A stretch of DNA of 64,000 bases, from NCBI GenBank assembly GCA_964016885.1, contig OZ024742.1, positions 210,738,001-210,802,000 of the forward strand, given 5' to 3'. The notes beneath the pieces are model-generated. The model was not told the DNA's origin. It saw nothing but the letters and a program-made list of their open reading frames with translations, and did not search any database. Origin of the DNA: Eledone cirrhosa (lineage: Eukaryota). The position numbers were made by a program, and so were the translations under genes. Shown piece after piece: positions 8 through 57,651 of this stretch; the stretch's first letter is position 1; every line of letters starts with the position of its first letter.

Positions 8-3000
8 ATGTATGGGAAAGGTCAACAGTTGACATGATAGTGATTTTGACGATTTTGATTTTGTATCAGTACTGTCGGTAATATATGTATATATATGTGT
101 TTGTGAGTGGTGTGTGTGATTGTATGCATGAATGAGTGTTAGTATGTGTGGTTGTGGTTTGTATGCGTGAGTATTGGTGTGTGAGTGTTTGTGTGTGCGT
201 CGTGTCAATAAGTTTTTTTTTTTTTTTTTTTTTTTTAATGACCATGCCTGTAAAATGGAGGGGTAGAGAGGGCCCTTGAGTCTAGTAAGACATCCTCTCT
301 AGTGCTGGTGGCACAAATAAAAGCACCCAGTCCATGCTGTAAAGTGGCGCTGGTGTTAGGAAAGGCATCCAACCAGTGTATCAATGCCAAAAAGCTTATC
401 AGCACAGCAACAAAACAGCATAGGAAAATATGAAGATGTCGCATCTCAGAGTTGCAACACTTAATGTTGGCACTCTCAGAGGTAGATCTGCTGAAATAGC
501 GGAGATGCTGGAGAGAAGGCAGGTGGATGTGTGCTGCGTGCAAGAGGTGAGATGGAGAGGTGCCTCTGCGAGACTAGTCGTAGGCAAACGTCTTAGCTAT
601 AAGCTATTCTGGGTAGGTAAGGATGATGGGTTAGGGGGAGTAGGCATTTTCCTGGCTGAGAGATGGATCAATAAGACAATAGAGGTAGTTCGAGTTAGTA
701 ATCGAATAATTAAGCTTAGATTAGTTGTAGGTAGGAGACTACTGACAATCATCTCGGTCTATGCTCCCCAAGCAGGCCTAGGCAAAGATGAGAAAGACTG
801 CTTTTATGAGCAACTTTTGCAAACAACCACAATGACAGAGGACGGAGACATCGTTATGCTAGCAGGAGACTTCAATGGTCATGTTGGACAGCTCCAGGAT
901 GGTTACACTGGGGTACATGGTGGGCACGGTTACGGTTCAAGAAATGAAGAAGGAGTGAGACTTCTTGAATTTTGTGATGCGAGTACATTGACTATTTGCA
1001 ACACAAACTTCCAGAAACCTGCCAATCACCTAATAACCTACAAATCTGGTGAGCACATAAGCCAGATTGACTTCCTGCTAGTTAGGCAGCGGGACAGGCA
1101 GATAGTGTCTAATACCAAGGCATACCCTGGGGAAGAATGTACCCCACAGCATAGGTTAGTTGTTAGTGATATCTCAGTAAGCAAGAGATGGAATGAGACA
1201 TATAGGAAGGTGTGGAGAAGAAAGGTCTGGAAGCTAAAAGACCTTTCACTAAAATACAAATTTAGGAAAGCCCTTCAAGATGTATATGACAAAAAAGAAG
1301 ACGATTTAGAGACGTATGACATAGATAATAACTGGAAGTTCTTACGTGACAACTTGCTGAAGGCTACTGATGAAACCTGTGGCTGGAGCAGAGCTCCAAC
1401 CAGACAGAGAGTGACCTGGTGGTGGAACAGCACAGTAGATAAGGCTATTAGAGACAAAAGACTAGCATGGAAGGCTTGGAAAAAGGGTGGGAGTAGGGAA
1501 GAATATACAGCCACTAAGAGAGAAGCTAGACGTCAGGTGTACTTAGCACGCAGGGAGGCAGAGAGTAGGAGGTTTGCCAATGTTCTGCGATGGGAAGATC
1601 AGAGGCGTGCGGTGTTCCACATTGCAAGGCAGTGTGTCAATGCAAATCAGGATGTTGTTGGAGATAAATGTGTCCGGGATGATGCCGGTGTACTTAGTGT
1701 CACGAATGACCAGAAAAAGGAGGCCTGGAAATGTCATTATGAGAGACTGATGAATGTGGAGAATGAATGGGAGAGAGAGAAATTACCCTTGGTAGATCTG
1801 ACAGAGGGACCAGCTATTGAGATTGACGAATATAGGGTCCAAGAGGCGATTAGGGAAATGAAAAATGGTAAGGCGGCCGGACCATCGGGAATAGTTGCTG
1901 AGATGCTGAAGGCATCAGGGGACGTAGGCACTAAACTGGTTGCACGCATCATCAATCAGGCTATATATGGTGGTGTCATACCCAAAGACTGGTGCAGCAG
2001 TATTCTCATAAATTGCTACAAAGGTAAAGGGGATGCTTTGGAGAGGAGCAATTGTAGGGGTATAAAACTGATAGATCAGGTTATGAAAGTGGCAGAAAGG
2101 ATTTTAGCACAACTAATTAGAGAAAGGGTCAAACTAGATGAGATGCAGTTTGATTTTGTGCATGGGAAGAGTACAACAGATGCCCTCTTCTTGGTGAGAC
2201 AAATGCAAGAGAGGTTCTTAGAGAAGAATAAGCCACTATACTTAGCCTTTGTTGACCTAGAGAAGGCCTTTGATAGAGTACCCCGATCTGTCATCTGGTG
2301 GTCCCTAAGGAAGCTAGGTGTTGAGGAATGGCTTGTGAGGACAGTGCAAACTTTGTACAGAGGTACTGTCAGTAAAGTCAGGGTAGGAATGGAGTTTAGT
2401 GAGGAATTCCAGATACAAGTAGGAGTACATCAAGCTTCGGTCCTCAGCCCGCTCTTGTTCATTATAGTCCTCCAAGCCATAACAGAGGAGTTTAAGACTG
2501 GCTGTCCATGGGAACTTCTCTATGCTGACGATCTTATAGCAGAATCAGTAGAGGAGCTAGAGAATAAATTCTGGTTATGGAAACAGCAGTTGGAATCAAG
2601 AGGACTGAGAGTGAACCTAGCTAAGACAAAAGTGTTGATGAGTAGAAAAGAGGACAAAACTCTGATTCCGTCAGGGAAATGGCCATGTTCGATATGCAGA
2701 AAAGGAACTGGCATAAATTCTATAAAATGCACACAATGCAGGTCCTGGGTACACAAGAGATGTAGCGGGATAGCAGGCAAACTAACAGGTAGGGAGAAAT
2801 ATGTATGCAGTAGATGTACAGGGAAATTAGACATTAGAAGTCGCACTGATAGACACATTTTTCAAATGCGAGAGGGCGCTATAGAAGTGGTGGATAGCTT
2901 CCGGTACCTAGGAGATCAGATTAGCATGGGAGGAGGGTGTTCCGAGGCCATAGTATCTAGAATAAGGACGGGTTGGAAGAAGTTTAGGGAGCTGCTTCCT

Positions 3001-3493
3001 CTGTTGACGAAGAAGGGTTTCTCCCTGCGTACGAAAGGCCGGTTGTATGATGCCTGTGTGAGGAGCGCGATACTGCATGGTAGTGAGACATGGGCAGCAA
3101 CCGCAGAGGATATGCGACGGCTGGAGAGAAATGAGGCAAGCATGCTCCGTTGGATGTGCAGTGTAAATGTGCGTGAACGACCCAGCATAAATGTGTTGAG
3201 AGAGAAACTGTGTCTGAGAGGGATAGAATGTAGTGTACGGGAGAGGAGACTGAGGTGGTATGGACATGTGATGCGCATGGAGGATGACCGATGGGTGAAG
3301 AAGTGCCAGGAAATGCCAGTTGAAGGAAGACGTGGTAGAGGTAGACCACGAAAAACATGGGCGGAGGTGGTGAGAACAGACCTCAGATCATTGAAGCTCA
3401 CGGTGGAGATGACGAGGGACCGTGACGAGTGGAGAGATGCTGTGCTGAATAAGACCCGTCCCACCCTTGCAAGCAGGGAAAAGCGGACGTAAA

Positions 3494-3532
<39 letters not shown>
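8..3532 (+). mobile_element. Apparently full-length RTE LINE, family A copy 1
   Basis: The ~420-nt 5'UTR is shared with the copy at 49372. The stop codon is followed directly by an (ATG)n tail at 3494-3532. Confidence 0.9.
430..3492 (+). CDS. RTE-clade LINE ORF: APE endonuclease + reverse transcriptase with inserted PHD-type zinc finger (family A)
   Basis: Uninterrupted 1020-aa ORF. APE motifs TLNV, VQEVRW, VYAPQ, GDFNGH, QIDF, QHRLV. RT motifs FVDLEKAFDRV, HQASVLSPLLF, YADD, FRYLG. RTE C-terminus RLRWYGHV..GRPRKTW. C4HC3 cluster CSIC..CTQC..HKRC..CSRC. Confidence 0.96.
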   Translation: MKMSHLRVATLNVGTLRGRSAEIAEMLERRQVDVCCVQEVRWRGASARLVVGKRLSYKLFWVGKDDGLGGVGIFLAERWINKTIEVVRVSNRIIKLRLVVGRRLLTIISVYAPQAGLGKDEKDCFYEQLLQTTTMTEDGDIVMLAGDFNGHVGQLQDGYTGVHGGHGYGSRNEEGVRLLEFCDASTLTICNTNFQKPANHLITYKSGEHISQIDFLLVRQRDRQIVSNTKAYPGEECTPQHRLVVSDISVSKRWNETYRKVWRRKVWKLKDLSLKYKFRKALQDVYDKKEDDLETYDIDNNWKFLRDNLLKATDETCGWSRAPTRQRVTWWWNSTVDKAIRDKRLAWKAWKKGGSREEYTATKREARRQVYLARREAESRRFANVLRWEDQRRAVFHIARQCVNANQDVVGDKCVRDDAGVLSVTNDQKKEAWKCHYERLMNVENEWEREKLPLVDLTEGPAIEIDEYRVQEAIREMKNGKAAGPSGIVAEMLKASGDVGTKLVARIINQAIYGGVIPKDWCSSILINCYKGKGDALERSNCRGIKLIDQVMKVAERILAQLIRERVKLDEMQFDFVHGKSTTDALFLVRQMQERFLEKNKPLYLAFVDLEKAFDRVPRSVIWWSLRKLGVEEWLVRTVQTLYRGTVSKVRVGMEFSEEFQIQVGVHQASVLSPLLFIIVLQAITEEFKTGCPWELLYADDLIAESVEELENKFWLWKQQLESRGLRVNLAKTKVLMSRKEDKTLIPSGKWPCSICRKGTGINSIKCTQCRSWVHKRCSGIAGKLTGREKYVCSRCTGKLDIRSRTDRHIFQMREGAIEVVDSFRYLGDQISMGGGCSEAIVSRIRTGWKKFRELLPLLTKKGFSLRTKGRLYDACVRSAILHGSETWAATAEDMRRLERNEASMLRWMCSVNVRERPSINVLREKLCLRGIECSVRERRLRWYGHVMRMEDDRWVKKCQEMPVEGRRGRGRPRKTWAEVVRTDLRSLKLTVEMTRDRDEWRDAVLNKTRPTLASREKRT

Positions 3533-9918: not shown

Positions 9919-11049
9919 ACATTAATTGACAATTAAAAATCAAATCAAATCAGCGAGTAGACCCATCATGTTCGTTGCTCGATCTGCAGTCAGATGACAT
10001 ATTTTTAAAAAAAAGGAGAGAATGTAATCTCTATTTTATAAAAAGAGAGGATGGCTATGTGTGGAGTACCTTTGATCAAAGGTCTGTTCAATTAGAATAT
10101 GAACAAGAATTAAACAACTATTGAAAATAATCACCAGTGCGAATTCATTTTAAAATGATAACTGTATGTAGTCGTCCAGTGGATCGATAAGAAGAAATGA
10201 ACAATACAAATAGAAATCAGTTATTGTTATTAGGTCAAATAGTTAACCTGTTTGAGACTGGTTTACATTTTTGGCAAAGAAGACGGTGCACAAATTCAAA
10301 AGTTAATATTTAAAATTAGTCCCAGTACCGTCTAAAAAATACTTGTCTAGTATCTAAGATGGAAAGAGTAAAATTTGGGAAATTTTGCAGTACACTACTA
10401 TTGGTATTTTATAATGATAGCATATTGGGTGAAAAGCAAATTTTGCATTAGCTTGGTTTGAACTCAGAACTAACATATACCACATGTGTACAGAATTATT
10501 ACACTAATATACCCTAACACACAAAAATTTATACGTACACAGGGATAATACCACACACTCCGGAGATCCATAAACACAAGCCAACATGTAAGTATTCACG
10601 TGATCGTTCGACATGCTAGAAATAGCAAGCAAGTTTCTCTGATCTCACAATCTTAATTTACCATCTTAATAGAAGAACAACACGCTGGATAATGAAATCT
10701 TAGATACACTACGCCTGAAACAAAAAACAAAAACAAAACAGGATGACCAGAGCTGAAAATGGTTTTCATCATATGACTGCTCAATCATGGCTGCTAACCT
10801 GCGCTTAACTAACAAGAAATAACAAAATATAAGATTGTGTGAGTGAATGTAAACAAGTATGAACAGAAGGGAGAGAAAAAAAAGTACTTTAAATTCTACT
10901 TTCAATATTGAAAATAAAGTTAGATTTTATTTTTTTCACAATTTTTATTTTCTAAGTTTCACCAACATACTTGTATAAAAATATAATAATATAATACTTA
11001 CAGAATGAAAACAAATGATATATACAAATAAAAACGCATAAAGGAGAGA

Positions 11050-11454
11050 TTAAAAAAAAACATGAAAGGGGGAGGAGGTAGTTCATCACCAAGTGCGACA
11101 ATTGGCCGCACCTCACATCTTACGAGTTAACTTCGAGGCAAGCCAATATGCTCGCATCATCACAACGGGTGATGGCGAGGCTGAGGAAATGAAACAACCA
11201 GGCACTCCACGGCATCACCTGACACCTCAGTAAGGTGAGCCGCCAGCGATGACAAGAACTTCGCTGTCAGCGGCCCAACTTCCACCAAACGTCTAGAACG
11301 CCACAGGTTGGAAAAAATAATTATAAGATAAATCCAGGTATTTCCGAATTTTATTCCGTTCGGCAACAGAAGCAGTGGTCCCCACATCCACCATGATGTA
11401 GGAGTGAACAAAAGAGTCACTGACTGTGACGTCCCAGATGAGACATCTACCCTC

Positions 11455-11455
<1 letters not shown>
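11050..11455 (-). mobile_element. CRE-like restriction-like endonuclease C-terminus and 3'UTR
   Basis: Minus strand reads GRCLIWDVTVSDSF..AERNKIRKY..FQPVAF..LSLAITR. Confidence 0.82.
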
Positions 11456-11504
<49 letters not shown>

Positions 11505-12226: not shown

Positions 12227-14007
12227 ACCGGCAAAGCCAGTGAGATCGGGGACCGGAGGACAAGGTCGCCATACCTCACAGGTAAAGTGGCCTGTTGCTA
12301 TCCAATGTCGTCAAACCTGACGTTGCATATCTCCTCGGCTGCTTCTCGGATACAAGTATCGAGGTCAGCGAGGAGAGATGTGTGGGTGTCGCACGGAGCG
12401 CTGCGAAGGGTATAGAGGAGCTTCGGCATAGCGAAGCAGTTCTCCAACAGAAAGAGGGCTGGGTGGCCGTCGATCAAGCCCAGTCGGCTCGTGAGAGTCT
12501 GGAGTTGTTGAAGCCTGGACCTGATGGTAGTGCGGATGGCCGGCGGGTGGATCGGTGACCCGAAGATGAGGACATCCTCTTTGGGGGTCATCTGTACCTG
12601 GTGGAGAATGGACCGCACGGCCGAGACGGAGGCTGCAAAGATCTCAGCATCGTGGCTGACATTCGCTACGACCTCTGACTTGGCCGAGTTGACCCGGAGG
12701 CCGATTCCTGCCAAGGCAGGAACCACCGATTGTAGGTCATGGCAGACAGTCTGTACGGGCCCGCCCAACGTAGCATCCAGATACCAAACATTGAGAGGGG
12801 CTGTGATACTCCGGGCGATGTGGTCTATACCAAGGGCAAACAGTGGCCGAAGGTATGACCATATCAGCAGCAAGGAGCATGCTCGGGGCTCCATACGACA
12901 GGTAGGCCAGCGGGTAGGCAGAGAGGTCTCGGCTGAGGCAGGCTTCGAGCAGATGGTCCCGAAGTAAGCAGTTGAAGGCATTCCTCATGTCAAGCTCGAC
13001 AATGAGGTACCTGGAGTCCCTGGATGCTGGTTCCGGTGGGCAGCTTCTGAAGAACTTCCTGGTTGCATGTGCGACCCCCTCACAGCCACCGGACACGCCG
13101 ACACCCAGTTGCACCGGACTGAACTCCTCAGCCAGTTCGGGTGTTATGGACCTGCAGACCACCTTGGCAGCCAGCCCCCGGAAGACATTGCCCACTAGCG
13201 GTGAGGCTAGCCGAAAAATGAGGCCTCGGGCGTGAGGGTCCAGGGTGCCATGGATGAGCCTATTGGTGAGCGCCACAATTGCACTCAGAAGGCGGCGCCC
13301 GGCCTCAGCGAAGAGGGGGATAGGAGCTCCTAGAGGTGGCCTGGTCGGAGACCATCAAGACCTCCGCTGCTGCTAGCTTGGAAGAACTTGATGGCGGACA
13401 TGATGTCTGCATCAGAAGCCACAAGGAGCAAGTGGTGGTCGGGTGGGGGTATGGGTCTGAGATCAGCGGATGGCTCAGGGTGCTTGAGTCGCAGGGCAGC
13501 CAGGACCTCCTCGGTGGGTTGGAGGACAGTGACCTTTAAGGCAACCACTCTGACTGCGGCCGAGACATCACCCATGATTAATTTAGCACAAAGGTTCTCA
13601 ACGGGGGTGGGGGGGTTGGAGGGGGGGGGGGGGGGGTGGAAGGCTCTTTACTTTGGTAAGTTTTATAAGCCATATTTGTATGTCTTCGAGACAGCCAGTG
13701 TGAATGCATTTGAATGAGCTTGCAGACAGCATAACTATAGTCTGACCTGTGTGCAGGCGTGTCCGGTAATTGAGACATTAACTGGTAATTGAGATCCTAA
13801 AAATGGAAAAAAACACAGTCAACGGGGTCAAGGACACTTTGAGCGCAGACAGTTAAAATCTTATCTTCCTTCACCGATAACAATGTATTACATGTCTGAA
13901 ATTATTGACTCAACCGTAACGAGTTAACACTATATAGATCTATTTTATTCCCTATTGTATAAATAATATTACAAATTAAAAAAAAGAAAAGAAAAAAACA
14001 GAAGCGG

Positions 14008-14187
14008 GTAGCAGACACATCTAGGATCACATACAACACATAAGCAGGTAATACACACATCTAGGACCACATGCAACACATAAGGAGGTAGCACACACAT
14101 CTAGGACCACATGCAATACATACATCTAGGACTACATACAACACACAGGCAGGTAATACATACATCTAGGACCACATACAACACACA
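14008..14187. repeat. ~39-bp minisatellite inside the hAT element
   Basis: About five copies of acatctaggaccacatacaacac, with variable ends. Confidence 0.85.
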
Positions 14188-15251
14188 TTGTATCATGTGC
14201 TACGGACGACGCAAGAGCAATGGTCGGCCAACATAAGGGCTTCGTCACTCTCCTGAAGAGAGAACATCTATCTGTATTTGCTGTTCATTGTGTCATTCAT
14301 GGACAACACTTGGCTGCGAAGAAACTCAGCAAGCCGCTGAGCAAGTCCTTGCAGGTGGCCATTGATGTCATCAATTTTATCAAACGGCATTCCCTCAATG
14401 AACGAATTTTCCGGCAACTGTGCCAAGATAATGACGAAGAATTCGTCAAGTTGCTCCTTCATACTGAAGTGAGGTGGCTTTCAAAGGGCAAGTGCCTTAC
14501 TCGCTTCTTTGAACTATTCGACTCTATCATTGAGTTTCTGTGAGGACGCAACACAGAACTGTACAATAAAACCCTCGATGCGTGGCAAGACTGCGCCTAC
14601 CTCGTCGACATCTTCGACAAATGCAATAACATCATTATGGCTTTGCTGGTGAAGAAGATTACCTTGCTTAAAGCAAGGAATGCTGTGAAAACATTCCTGG
14701 CCAAATTGAATGTCATCGAAAGGAATCTTTGTTGACGGGAATTCTATAATTTTCCTAGTGTCGCCAATGTTCAAAACATTGTAAGTGATGACCAACTCCA
14801 AATTTATACCACTCACTTCCGTGCGCTACAAGACAACATGAGAGAATGGTTTGTCGACCTTTTGCCGATGGACATCCCAATGTGGATAGCAGATCCTTTC
14901 ATAGCTAACGTCGACGATTTGGACGTTAAATTTCAGGAAGAATTCATTGAACTTCAAGCAGATGACATGATCAAAATTAGATTTCCCAAAATAGGTGAAC
15001 CTCTTTTTGGAATGCAAGAGGAAATTCAGCGTTGATTTCCACACCTATATGCAGAGGCTAAGAGATTTGCTCTGCCTTTTCCAAGCTCATACTTAGTTGA
15101 GAGGAGGTTTGGTGCCGTTTCCAGACTGCACAGTAAGGCTCGCAACCGCTACAATGTAATTACACGTGGAAATCTCTGGCTACATCTTAGGAAAATTGAG
15201 CCTCACGTCAAAGAGTTAGCTAGACTCCATGAAGCTCAAGGGTCCCATTGA
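14188..15251 (+). pseudogene. hAT/Buster transposase C-terminal half, disrupted
   Basis: HCVIH, LLLHTEVRWLSKG, W..DPF and LPFPSSYLVER..QGSH* motifs, with stops and frameshifts. Confidence 0.9.
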
Positions 15252-16855
15252 AATGAGGTAAAAGTTAAAGTAAGTTGATTTATCCGAAAACTTGGATATG
15301 CTATTGTTACAAAGCAAACTAACAATTTTTTTATTTGTAGTTGCAGTCTGACTGGACTGGAAACCATCTACTACAATTCACTTACTCATTTGTTGTATAT
15401 ATTTTACCATTTATTAATAAATATACCCTCCAGCGTGGTCACGAAAACCCGCTTCCGTGGTCTCTAAGCTCACAAAGCAGAGGGGACATCAAGTTAGATA
15501 TCAACATTTATTCTGTCTGTTTCATTAAAGGGAAAATTGGAAAGCTTTGAAATGATATAATTGCCACTTTCTTCCAGATAAGAGCACTCTTGGAATAGAC
15601 AGAGTTGTTCTTGTATAAATGTTCAAAATAGCTGGTATCGCCTGGTGGGAATATAACAAATTCAACTGGTCCTTATTCATAAAAAAGAACATTTATGTTC
15701 CTTTTTTTTAAATTTATATATTTCCTTTCAAGGAATGTATTTATACTCTCAGCTGCCTGCAATGGTATCTTTGGAGTATTGTTAATCAATTTTTTTAGTA
15801 ATATACTGATATCAAAATCAGTAGTATATTGGAAAATGGAAAAATAGGGTAGGGGGGCGTTTCGTGATTTCGAGGGGCAAAAGGGGGCGTTTGGCCTAAA
15901 TGGGTTGAGAACCTGTGATTTAGCATTTACGCGGGCGCGCAAATTCTTGGTGCTAGCCTAAGGGGTGGAGGATTGGGGGTACCCGAGGGTGGAGTGTGTG
16001 GCGTCCCTGGGCACGCTTGGAATGAGCGCTTGCCCAAAGGACGAAACATTGGCCTTGACGAAGGCTGCTGTCGACCGGCCGCCCCGGTCAGCGCCAGAGC
16101 TGGGGAAGCCGAGAGCGAGTGGGGCGAAATAAAAGAGTCGCTCCCAGTCGATGGCTCGATTGGAGTCCAGGGCGCTCTCAACTGAGGAGGCGAGGGCATC
16201 GGCTACTGGTACCCGGGCCGCTCTCGGGATCCTGAGTGGGATCTTCTGGAGCCGTCTGAGCTGAGCGATGTTGACCAGCGAGGCTTGGGCGTCAGGCAAG
16301 CTCGCTGTCTCATCTGGTGGTGTGCCAGACGGACGTGGCTGGGCAAAAGAGGGAAAGAGGCAGTTCCTGCATCTCCACGCTGCGAGGGCACTGGAGGCTC
16401 GACGTGTCAAGCCAACACAGGTGAGGTGGTGGAAGCAGCCGCACCCGGAACAGTTCCGGCCCCTCTTCCGTCTGTTAGTGGTTCTGCAAGTGCTGCAGGT
16501 GTCGGCTTGAGGGGAAGGGGCTGGGCGAGGGGCCGGGGACTGGGGCACTGCGCGGCATCGGGGGTGAGTGGCTGGCGTGTGTGGATGGAAGGGAAAGTGC
16601 TGGTAAGAAGGCCTCACAGCTCACCTACATCAGATATAGAGGCATCAGAAGACAAGAGAGAAAAGAAGGGGTGCATGGAGGGGGACATACAAGAAGGTAG
16701 AATGTTAGCAAAGGAATGAGTGAATGGATGAATGTACAAAAAAAAACAAAAAACAAAAAACAAACAAAGGGGTGGGGGGACAGGGGGTTCAACTGTTGAC
16801 TTACGAAAGAGTTCGTATAAAGAGTTCGTATAATTGAAGCCGTGTGTTACTGTTT

Positions 16856-16997
16856 AGCATCGAACTACGGCCCTCCACGCTCCGGGCCCAAATCCCGCCG
16901 AGGTCAACCCTGTCCTTTATCCCCACGGAGCCGACAAAACAAGGCACCAGCAATGCGCTGGGACAATCGCTGTCCCGTGCCAAGAACAGAATAATTA
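16856..16997 (+). mobile_element. SINE family 1 copy with dense T>C changes (A>G on the minus strand)
   Basis: Collinear with the copies at 20493, 28895 and 43331, but with about 17 T>C substitutions in ~100 aligned nt. Confidence 0.85.
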
Positions 16998-17033
16998 CTA
17001 TTTTTATAGTTGTTGTTTTATTGAGGCAGCCTT

Positions 17034-17405
17034 CATAATGTCATAATGCAGACATCCAGACATACAGACAGATATTATAAGGGCGCAACGCTGAGGTTGA
17101 CTTTGCCTTTCATCCTTACGGGGTCGATAAAATAAAGTACCAGTAATGCACTGGGTATTTGCTGGCCTTGTGCCTAACGCAGAAACAGTTATATCTATCT
17201 AAAAAGAAAGACTAAGAATTATAGAGAGAGATCGCTAAATCGCCTAATGCGGTCCCTAGGGCATTGAAAATTTGAAATATTTATTGCTCAAAACAGTCAC
17301 AGGACGATAAGTATTACATGTGAAAAGGTTGAAAACAATCGGATGGGTGGTTCTCGAGTTTTAGGGAGTCAGACAGACAGACATTCTCTGTTTTAGATAT
17401 ATAGA
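17034..17405 (-). mobile_element. Non-autonomous Helitron 5' part with a SINE fragment (17091-17190) inserted
   Basis: Starts TCtatatatctaaaacagagaatgtctgtctg on the minus strand. Homologous to 56742-57017, which lacks the SINE piece. Confidence 0.75.
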
Positions 17406-19611
17406 TTTGTTTGTGCTTTCATTCTGTAAGCATTGTATTACTATATTTCTTTTTATACAATTGTGTGTGTGTGGGGGGGGGGGGGGGGTATGTATGTGTG
17501 TGTTTGTATGTATGCATGTATATGTATGCATGCATGTATGTATGTATATGTATGCATGCATATATGTTTCACAATTTTTTTATGCATGCATATATGTTTC
17601 ACAAATTGTTGCCAATAGAGGGAGAGTCGGTTTCTAACATAGACACAAAACTCACTCATTGGAATTTACACAACATCAACGAGGTAGATATGCATGCGTG
17701 TGTAGATATGGATGTTATTGTATGTGTGGATGTGTATGTTTTGAGTTGTATGTGTGCATGTGTATATGCTTAGTATCTGTACATGTGTATATGCAGTTAT
17801 TAGATGTAAAATGTTTGGAATGTTTTACATATTTTTACTGTTCCATTAATGGATTGTACTTGTAATTTCATAACCAGTTGTGTTCTTTCTGTTCCTGTGA
17901 AGCCCAGCTTCTCAAGATTTGTATTGAGGCAGTTACTAACATATCCCAGTGCCCCAATAATCACAGGCATAAATCTGAAGGTGTAATCAGGGTGGAGTAT
18001 CTGCAGATTTCTCATCAGTTCTGCATAAATATTCTCCTTTTCGCTAATCTTTGATATTATATTGGCATCTGCTGTACAGCTAATTTTGACTACTGTGCAT
18101 GCCTTCTTTCCCTGTCCCATATCATAATATCTGGTCTGTTATGCCTGCATTTTATTGGGATTTTGACTGGAACATTCCACCAGTAATCTTTCATCATATT
18201 ATGCATATGTATGTCTTCAACATTGTTGTAGCTTTTAATGTGTTTATTATCGGGGCTATCTTTTCTACGGATTGCATTGTACAGTGTTTTGGCCACTACA
18301 TCATGCCTCATAGGTAGATAGTATCGCGATGACATCTTTGGACAGTTGCTTATGACATGGGTGACATCTTCGATGTTAATTCTGCAGAGTCTGCACTTGT
18401 TGTCACATCCAAGTGTTTTGCCTGCATCCCTATCTCTTTTGTGAATCAGGTATTTCGTGTTGATTTCCTGTTCTTGGATTGCAAAAGCGTATCCTTCAAA
18501 GTGGGAGCCAATATAGCGGTTGTTGGTCCAGGATAGACTACTTTCCTTATCTATATTACTCTCACTCTGGAGCTTCCTGGCAATATATCCATGCATGATT
18601 TTTTGCTGATAAGCATGCTGTTTTTCATCCCTGGATTCACTGCGATACTGCTGAGCAACATCCCTGGGTGTGAGTTTTGATTATCACACAGGGAATATCT
18701 CTCGAGAAGTTCCTTCCCAACTCTCATGATCTTATCTGTTTCATGCAGATAGACTTGCTCGAGAGACGGGCTCCTACGCTTTGAGGTTCGTAGATATTGT
18801 CGGAGAGATATGATGTGACATTCAAATGCTGTCTGGACTGACGTTAGGCCTCTGCCTCCCTGCTTACGTTTCAAGTAAAGGCAGTCTGTCACTATTGATG
18901 TGGAAGTTTCCGGTGTTGTTTAGTATTTTTCGAGTTCTAACATCAATCGCTTGGATTTCGTCTATCGTCCAATTGAGTATTCCAAAAGTTGGTGTTAGGA
19001 CAGGCACAACAAACACATTGTGAGCCACTGTTTTGTTTTGCGCGGAGAGTTCCGATGACCATATCTTTCTTAATCGGGTGTAGTATTCACTGGTTATGCG
19101 TTCCTTATTACAGATACCATTATAGGATATGTTCTCATCTATCCCCAGGTATCTGTAGCAGTCCTCATCAGATATCGGTGAAACAGTTAGGCCATTGATA
19201 CAAATGTTGCTAGATTGGGTTGTTGTTTTTCCCCGCTTTACAGTCATATATGAGCATTTATCTTGGCCAAACTCCATTCCTATATCCTTTGAGAATGCTG
19301 TAACCAGGTCAAGATTTTTCTTCATCCCTTCCATGTTCTTGGGATAGAGTTTCAGATCATCCACAAAAAATTATGGGTTAGGTTCGTATTTCTGTTCTCC
19401 TGTGAGCCAATGATGTATCCTTTACATTTCTTGAGCAGAAAGGACAAGGGGTTTAATGACAGGATGAATTATATCACAGAGAGACTGTTTCCCTGAAATA
19501 TACCCCTACGATATTTTATTCTATCAGTGAAAATAGAGTTCTCCTTCTCTGTCTTTAACTTTAGGATAGTAGCTCAAGAAGAAGACACCTTCTCTATGGC
19601 TCTGATAATAA

Positions 19612-48980: not shown

Positions 48981-49426
48981 TGGATGCCCTTCCTAACACC
49001 AGCGCCACTTTACAGCATGGACTGGGTGCTTTTATTTGTGCCACCAGCACTAGAGAGGATGTCTTACTGGACTCATGGGCCCTCACTACCCCTCCCTTTT
49101 ACAGCATGGTCATAAAAAAAAACCCCCACTTATTGACACTCACGGCACACATACACACTCACTCACACACCAACACTCATGCATACAAACACACACGCAC
49201 AGATACATACACATATATATATATATATATATACATATATATTACCGTCAGTACTGATACCAAATTATGTCAACTGTTGACTTTTCCAGTTCAGTTTTTC
49301 ATATAATAATAATAATTGTTTGCTTTACAGCATAGAGCAAACAATTATTATTATTATATAAAAAACTGAACTGGAAAAGTCAACAGTTGACATAATTTGG
49401 TATCAGTACTGACGGTAATATATATG

Positions 49427-49459
<33 letters not shown>

Positions 49460-49744
49460 GTATGTATGTATGTATGTGTATGTGTGAGTGGCGTGTGTGT
49501 GTTTGTATGCATGAGTGTTAGTGTGTCAGTGGCGTGTGTGTTTGTATGCATGAGTGTTGGTGTGTGAGTGAGTGTGTGTGTGCCGTGAGTGTCAATAAGT
49601 GTTTTTTTTTTATGACCATGCTGTAAAATGGAGGGGTAGAGAGGGCCCATGAGTCCAGTAAGGCATCCTCCCTAGTGCTGGTGGCACAAATAAAAGCACC
49701 CAGTCCATGCTGTAAAGTGGCGCTGGTGTTAGGAAGGGCATCCA
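48981..49744. repeat. ~760-bp imperfect palindrome formed from the RTE family A 5'UTR
   Basis: 48981-49327 is the reverse complement of 49333-49744 apart from microsatellite length and a few substitutions. 5-nt loop cagca. Confidence 0.93.
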
Positions 49745-56741: not shown

Positions 56742-57651
56742 TATATGTATCTAAAACAGAGAATGTCTGTCTGTCTGACTCCCTAAAACTCGAGAACGAC
56801 CCAACTGATTGTTTTCAAACTTTACTATACTTATGGTCGTGTGAGTGTTTTGAGCAAAAAATATTTCAAATTTTCAATGCCCTAAGGACCGCATTAGGCG
56901 AAAAAGCGATCTCTCTCTATCTTTCTTAGTCTGTCTTTTTAGATAGATACATAGATATAACGTTGCGCCCTTATAATATCTGTCTGTATGTCTGGCTGTC
57001 TGCATTACGACATTATGACACTATCTGTGTGTGTGTGTGTATATATGTATATATAGTGTGTATATATATATATAGTGTTTAACGTTTTTCGAAATATTTA
57101 CTTCTGCGTTCACAGATTGATTTTTCTAGTTTCAGAAGATCCCGTTAAGGGTGAAAGCAGCGATTCTTCGCTTAAACTTTAATCTGTTATTTTAATATAT
57201 ACATATATATAATTATATATTCGTGTACAGATATTTTTGCATACACAATAACAAAATATAAACAAACGTATTTATTTCACAAGACTCAATAAGGATAAAT
57301 ATATATCAAATATATAAGAACCCTAGAGCAAATATTGTTCTCATTGCTGACGAGGCAGAAAGGGATATACAAGATTGGATGAAGAAGGGTGAGACTGTGT
57401 TAGTAGTACGACCAATGGTTGCTATCACACCAACAGCAGCAAAAACAACAACAAAAAAGAGAGCGAATGCTTTTGAATGCTTTTGAAAAATCTTAATGGA
57501 AAATTATTTGCCTATTCACCGAAGGCGACTTCACTTTTTATTAGGACTTCTGCATCAATTGGTGAACATACGACGAAACTGTTTCAGAAAGGAGGGATAA
57601 ACATGCCAATCTATGTTTAGAATCCCGAGCAATGCCGGGCCATTCTGCTAG
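56742..57651 (+). mobile_element. Non-autonomous Helitron
   Basis: 5' end homologous to the 17405 copy. 3' hairpin cccgagcaatgccggg followed by CTAG|T. Confidence 0.78.

Follow-up and report, generated by a model that had tools for sequence, protein, structure and literature searches.

Antisense SINEs in LINE leaders of Eledone cirrhosa carry stepwise A-to-G changes that probably record ADAR hyper-editing fixed by reverse transcription

Deaminase editing that has become fixed in genomic retroelements is known from the APOBEC enzymes, whose "DNA editing" is reported from vertebrate LTR retrotransposons and, in the available text of the same reports, was absent from the 19 invertebrate genomes screened (PMC4866542, PMC2873906). 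The sequences from Eledone cirrhosa described here resemble that system, as those texts present it, in having a clustered and strand-biased deaminase signature with a neighbour preference, kept in integrated retroelements. In the same accounts, APOBEC acts on the cDNA of LTR elements and leaves G>A on the sense strand, whereas here A is replaced by G on the strand of the host RNA and in SINE-derived duplex only, the hosts are non-LTR and Penelope-like elements, and the changes were acquired stepwise. By the mark of APOBEC-type editing, G>A on the sense strand of the element, our sequences do not belong to that class, as they show A>G on the host-sense strand.

In transcriptomes, dsRNA derived from repeats has been found hyper-edited by ADAR, most strongly, in the available text of that study, in octopus and a frog (PMC5625713). 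Our sequences have in common with it the dense A>G clusters, the disfavoured upstream G and the inverted repeats as substrate. However, the hyper-editing of that report consists of mismatches between RNA and genome, whereas here the G stands in the assembled genome and is common to hundreds of copies. The turning of RNA editing into DNA sequence via reverse transcription has a parallel in the retroprocessing of plant mitochondria, in which the copying back of edited transcripts removes editing sites (PMC5748713). As set out in the available portion of that paper, retroprocessing concerns C-to-U, organellar, site-specific editing and gene conversion of host genes, unlike the nuclear A-to-I hyper-editing, spread by retrotransposition, that we propose.

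The feeding back of A-to-I editing into the inherited genome has so far been argued mostly as a hypothesis. A-to-G hypermutated retroviral proviruses, reported from infected cells and from single clones, are attributed to ADAR; as in our reading of the present copies, these are ADAR edits on retroelement RNA fixed by the RT of the element, but such proviruses are not known as inherited, amplified families driven by an inserted SINE. Human L1 is restricted by ADAR1 through an editing-independent effect, with no A-to-I change in the L1 RNA sequenced, according to the available text of PMC5224506. There, too, ADAR meets the RNA of a non-LTR retrotransposon; unlike in that system, the edited LINE RNA here appears to have been retrotransposed successfully many times. 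In octopus, the available part of PMC9115989 describes an RTE element that is transcribed and may be active. In the literature searched, mainly open-access main texts, we found no report of ADAR-edited sequence fixed in animal non-LTR elements, and supplementary note S4 of PMC4866542, which deals with invertebrates, could be relevant to this novelty.

The window, that is, the whole stretch of 64,000 nucleotides analysed, contains at 16856 to 16998 (minus strand) a 5'-truncated SINE that lies antisense in a LINE leader and bears 22 to 24 A>G on the host RNA strand, as found by alignment to a SINE family with ordinary copies elsewhere in the window. One 30-mer of this family has 109,777 exact matches genome-wide. 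The consensus was taken from ordinary copies of the window and of fetched loci; the collection held 207 SINE-like units, 199 of them distinct and 86 ordinary, and the 19 columns polymorphic among the 86 ordinary copies were masked before counting. On the plus strand, the masked comparison yields 22 T>C, 4 A>G, 4 C>T, 3 G>A and 1 A>C (34 in total), and with the masked columns included there are 24 T>C against 14 others. As the SINE is antisense to the host ORF, a T>C read along the SINE corresponds to an A>G in the RNA of the element. The first-pass annotation had counted about 17 A>G against about 7 others, which is right in kind and slightly low (22 against 12 in the masked count). The strand asymmetry that it claimed is upheld: T>C makes up 42 of 500 substitutions in the ordinary copies, with at most 3 in any of the 86, against which the excess in the window SINE has a binomial p of 4e-16, and the symmetry test of T>C versus A>G gives p = 5e-4. 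The 4 A>G on the SINE strand, among the 12 other changes, lie above the background of 34/500.

On the minus strand of the window SINE, the adenosines changed were 8/11 after U, 9/14 after A, 3/8 after C and 2/6 after G. The earlier claim that nearly every A after T is changed and most As after G or C are spared agrees with these fractions in direction, but within this one copy the bias stays below significance (Fisher p = 0.09). The changes disrupt an internal motif of the SINE that we take to be B-box-like. For comparison, an ordinary unedited fragment of the SINE lies outside the leader at 17089 to 17192 (plus strand), inside another repeat (17033-17399, also 56748-57018).

The strand with the edits runs opposite to the SINE but is the sense strand of a CRE-like ORF, at 16620 to 15918 and 13588 to 12229, an orientation that had been noted in the first pass. 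Along the minus strand, the SINE is preceded by an outer remnant of the common leader (16999 to 17027), homology with sister copies ending at 17027 in the window copy, and followed by a leader segment in common with an RTE-type LINE family (16789 to 16855), in which a ~22-nt AT-rich piece beside the SINE is missing from the window copy. Then come the 5' untranslated part of the CRE-like element itself, common to the CRE-linked copies (16621 to 16788), the N-terminal part of the ORF, with a PHD finger below the Pfam cut-off (15918 to 16620), and the broken RT part (12229 to 13588), which lacks the 3' endonuclease part of sister copies. An insertion at 13589 to 15917, presumably hAT-like, splits the ORF; its short ends are inverted, and 8 bp of target are duplicated (13581-13588 and 15918-15925). 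A CRE-like sister copy (L031) gave an RVT_1 match below the cut-off and RT-containing Atlas clusters; endonuclease motifs of the CRE-like ORF were read by eye from translations, and their labels are our assumption. A 3' fragment of a different CRE-like lineage occupies 10960-11460, with a short inverted match to its tail ~6.4 kb off at 17410-17460. We had considered this fragment as the 3' end of the window CRE copy and rejected it, finding no matching stretch in the 15 other CRE-linked loci.

The RTE-type family is also present in the window, with a copy at 21 to 3492 (plus strand) whose ORF, at 424-3492, codes for endonuclease, RT and PHD, whose leader is related to the edited-SINE leader family, and whose 3' tail is an ATG repeat at 3494-3532. 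The single RTE-type ORF combines endonuclease and RT (Pfam Exo_endo_phos and RVT_1). We assume the clade names RTE and CRE from domain layout. Despite belonging to unrelated clades, the RTE-type and CRE-like LINEs have a common outer 5' leader of ~0.5-1 kb, joined at a short palindrome, which we read as a leader or promoter swap between two LINE clades. At 48981-49744, directly upstream of the start of an RTE ORF, the RTE 5' leader forms a large fold-back (inverted duplication) centred at ~49335, at the junction just before the edited SINE, with arms almost identical save for microsatellite lengths. The leader and its surroundings are an insertion hot spot, as ordinary unedited SINEs of various subfamilies have repeatedly entered AT-rich sites there, in the orientation of the edited SINE (L043, L045, L050, L052, L053, L055, L058-L061, L064, L071, L092, L099 and L231).

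A search with the window segment returned 40 scored loci, 77-100% alike, around which 10 kb of context was fetched for each (5 kb for one). The hosts of these best 40 loci were a CRE-like ORF in 16, an RTE-type ORF in 15, the RTE leader only in 6 and neither in 3. The ORF was antisense to the SINE in every ORF-linked locus save L037, a rearranged CRE-linked locus with inversions and a tandem duplication of leader and ORF pieces. Two junction patterns, with 421 and 165 exact matches, put the number of copies at 586 at least. Inward from a junction at ~16789, the CRE copies continue with their own UTR and ORF and the RTE copies with the RTE leader. The consensus of the 12 RTE-linked copies and that of the 16 CRE-linked copies each carry 22 T>C, the same set; they differ in a single A>G and in three letters bordering a CRE-specific deletion. 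For all 24 T>C sites of the window copy, the change is present in 7-12 of the 11-12 RTE-linked copies that cover the site. The CRE body has decayed in an ordinary manner, with 14 T>C in 577 changes (12 copies), and the ORF part at 15918 to 16620 shows 4 T>C in 35 changes against sister copies, again with no excess. T>C exceeded A>G in all 115 leader copies, out of 136, that passed the coverage filter, and the flanks of the SINE in the leader are nearly unchanged, the A>G excess being confined to SINE-derived sequence.

These counts bear directly on the first-pass reading of a single hyper-editing event written once into the genome by the CRE RT. In its favour, a CRE-like ORF on the edited strand accompanies the window copy, and 16 of the 40 best matches are CRE-linked. 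However, 21 of the best 40 loci lie with an RTE ORF or leader, the two consensus sequences have their 22 T>C in common, and less-edited leader copies occur. The reading is largely refuted, and we leave it only a slim probability. The CRE copies carry the same edits, a point that the earlier note had proposed to check, and as the same T>C set stands in the RTE-linked consensus, the CRE-like family inherited the changes; their attribution to its RT is not supported. The evidence supports an RTE-type LINE family with the SINE antisense in its 5' leader, which the CRE-like family probably captured later.

The single event also fails on the gradation of the edits, as the leader SINE is a multi-copy stretch in which changes were built up stepwise, the load ranging from 3 to 23 T>C. 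Using a low-edit leader copy as search seed, we fetched 14 new places. At the lower end, L229 holds a full-length SINE at the same leader site with 3 T>C, followed by L225 with 5, L219 with 9, L218 with 11, L200 with 12 and a middle group with 14-18. In the listed part of a tree built from the flanks only, which is short, keeps 99 of 136 rows and is rooted on L229 by our choice, L218, L225 and L200 adjoin L229 via common flank characters. From the SINE consensus to the middle group there are 15 T>C and 4 others, from the middle group to group B 6 T>C and 7 others, and from B to group C 3 T>C and 3 others. The branch from the middle group to group A has 1 T>C among 5 changes, and that from A to the young group D none among 9; along the latter, 3 A>G were gained and three earlier T>C lost. 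One copy of group A, L148, has 8 private T>C among 12 changes, 8 more than its subfamily consensus. The graded loads, together with fresh bursts in single copies (8 additional changes in L148 and 16 in L160, described below), point to repeated rounds of editing.

Recombination has also shaped these copies. The edit sets of the low-edit copies are imperfectly nested (L219 versus L218 and L200), and in chimeras half of the edited SINE has been swapped for ordinary SINE (L161, L163, L166, L175, L180 and L181), which suggests template switching or conversion with SINE RNA. Given the imperfect nesting and the chimeras with ordinary halves, some of the low counts may reflect recombination rather than early stages. 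A junction pattern aimed at unedited leaders returned a young subfamily with back-changes (30 of 421 examined). This young leader subfamily (L100-L129), at ~2% divergence, has lost three earlier T>C, and about half of its 30 copies have a ~50-nt internal deletion between two short repeats.

The presence of a nearly unedited SINE at the same leader site is also relevant to the idea of an older C-rich SINE subfamily, from which ordinary SINEs would have drifted by C>T with no editing at all. C>T and G>A do prevail in the decay of ordinary copies, and SINE site 95, where C is found in 5 of the 78 ordinary copies, may represent a CpG variant of some age and may be ancestrally C. Against this stand the near-unedited full-length L229 and the leader context of all 40 best matches to the window segment, so that the independent C-rich subfamily named in the first pass as an alternative was not found. 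Moreover, the events described below differ in the T sites changed and in the SINE subfamily of origin, and the sense arm of a hairpin shows A>G, not T>C. We consider an older subfamily extremely unlikely.

The first pass had proposed a scan of the genome for clustered, strand-specific A>G in copies of transposable elements, and pattern searches found separate events in other hosts. The patterns demanded 3-4 changes at TA sites in an otherwise ordinary SINE, so the additional events are ascertained. T>C patterns returned 23 and 21 loci, in overlapping lists, and the A>G pattern 1 locus; for the three-site T>C pattern, ~0.2 loci would be expected against the 21 found (109,777 x 0.012 cubed, at 1.2% per site). 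In 18 of the 23 loci, the host is a second LINE family, with another edited SINE lying antisense in its leader. From its motifs we take this family to be R4-like; a Pfam search of its ORF fragments gave no named match. In 2 of the 23, the host is a GIY-YIG (Penelope-like) element, with the edited SINE directly after its ORF and in antisense orientation. The other T>C loci of the 23 are L165 and L169, and L182, which is the partner of the single A>G match, and the second list adds L185, L199, L200, L205 and two more loci of the second family. The change was A>G on the host sense strand in all 5 events whose host direction could be read; for the hairpin and L199, direction was taken from a 90% match to the RTE leader and from a microsatellite tail. 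The edited copies keep the diagnostics of different SINE subfamilies. At L165, two T>C-rich SINEs stand ~730 nt apart (540-660, 1050-1250, 1387-1576 region), the microsatellite between them looks T>C-converted, and an inverted counterpart lies beyond the second SINE.

Ten SINE pieces outside the RTE leader together hold 141 edits, 6 mirror changes and 41 others, sites required by the patterns included. With the required sites left out, the fractions edited by 5' neighbour were 25/60 after U, 55/122 after A, 13/81 after C and 9/51 after G, a bias of U and A over C and G that is significant when the ten pieces are pooled (p = 2.4e-7); ordinary SINE copies lack this trend. The pooled bias agrees with the depletion of upstream G, given in the available text of PMC5625713 as a preference common to ADARs.

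A short non-autonomous element at L160 (C17:942.9-943.1 kb) contains two SINE parts, first an antisense fragment and then a sense SINE. The predicted RNA folds into one long stem (z -9.6, 100 shuffles). The sense arm has 18 A>G and zero other unmasked changes; in the antisense arm there are 15 edits, which read A>G on the strand changed in the sense arm, and 2 others. Changed adenosines were 17/27 in the stem and 1/17 in the loop. A sister hairpin copy (L185, the same locus as L208) has part of the L160 set, private G numbering 16 in L160 and 2 in L208. Twelve copies of the host element were fetched: 9 are empty at the hairpin site, and L211 has an unedited antisense SINE fragment there. A G at L160:1303, considered as an edit of the host flank, turned out to be a common host variant. 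The AT-rich, self-complementary site of the short non-autonomous host (L207-L217:1650-1680) shows scattered A>G in empty copies, too few for an editing call.

If the process had acted on DNA or cDNA, one would not expect it to change both arms in one direction on one strand and to spare the loop. Misincorporation by the RT under an imbalance of nucleotide pools, or deamination of cDNA in an RNA:DNA hybrid, would likewise require retrotransposition and give strand-biased transitions, and later branches do show some A>G on the other strand. Yet the changes end at the edges of the SINE or of the stem, with the CRE body unaffected and the leader flanks nearly so, and deamination of cDNA adenosines would be expected to yield T>C, not A>G, on the host-sense strand; we hold such a process to be very unlikely. 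An artefact of assembly or sequencing, or edited cDNA mixed into the assembly, would be conceivable in that the window bases rest on the assembly. For the hairpin, the listed contigs gave no span, and two RAD DNA runs, with almost no depth at the unique L160 junction, contain some reads with G alleles on the antisense arm. In run X3, of unrecorded kind, the ratio of edited-type antisense arm to ordinary SINE exceeds that of X1 ~70-fold, a figure we do not count as evidence. The changes recur in hundreds of copies spread over many contigs; the flanks of these copies differ, ordinary decay has altered them by 2-6% after they were inserted, and they have later transposon insertions and a subfamily structure, which leaves the probability of an artefact close to nil.

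The best explanation of the sequence data, which we hold with high confidence, is ADAR hyper-editing of SINE-derived dsRNA in LINE transcripts, fixed by reverse transcription. In this respect, the core of the first-pass proposal, that a SINE lying antisense in a LINE leader was hyper-edited as dsRNA and reverse-transcribed, is supported by the strand asymmetry, the pooled neighbour bias, the hairpin edited on both arms and the events in other hosts. Weighing against it are the 4 A>G on the SINE strand of the window copy, the 3 A>G gained on the branch from A to D, the neighbour bias short of significance in the window copy by itself and the imperfect nesting of the low-edit copies. We infer live RNA editing, ADAR as its enzyme and the duplex partner of the leader SINE from these patterns. 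The antisense leader SINE would pair with sense SINE RNA, either from a partner in the same transcript or from abundant SINE transcripts in trans, and ADAR would deaminate about half of the SINE adenosines. The RT would then copy inosine as G during retrotransposition in the germline, and the new copy could serve as source element and be edited again, as in a ratchet. The CRE-like element would have acquired the leader later, by recombination or a template switch, and spread it.

As for the partner, no inverted SINE in cis was found within the leader, and local inversion occurs in 3 of 56 leader loci. We gave up the idea that the AT-rich bases beside the SINE are what is left of an inverted SINE arm, since a target site joined to sequence of the SINE itself accounts for them no less well. 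A leader folding back over its full length was judged an unlikely source of duplex because the non-SINE flanks hardly changed. Only one event has two arms, and those with an antisense SINE alone are more numerous, as would suit a partner supplied in trans by SINE transcripts, on small numbers and with patterns of differing sensitivity. Selection to escape pairing with SINE RNA was also considered and is not supported, as the predicted energy of the window duplex, at -207 kcal/mol, falls within the range of 44 ordinary copies (mean -240, weakest -192).

Beyond the locus, the present traces can be counted and dated, since they comprise separate events, a hairpin edited on both arms and one lineage at hundreds of copies across two LINE clades. 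The question can be tested in any animal by scanning its genome for strand-specific A>G clusters in retroelement copies. ADAR hyper-editing as the source would imply ADAR activity on retrotransposon RNA in germline-forming cells, and calls for caution, as some repeat "subfamilies" and some reference G alleles in editing studies may be fixed edits. More broadly, ADAR may act in this genome as a recurrent germline mutator, with any SINE inserted antisense in a retrotransposon transcript being targeted in trans by plentiful SINE RNA, hyper-edited and rewritten into DNA, and G added at each cycle, a proposal for and against which we find the chances evenly balanced. If it is true, LINE families of several clades would hold an inherited, stepwise record, a fossil of ADAR specificity and germline activity.
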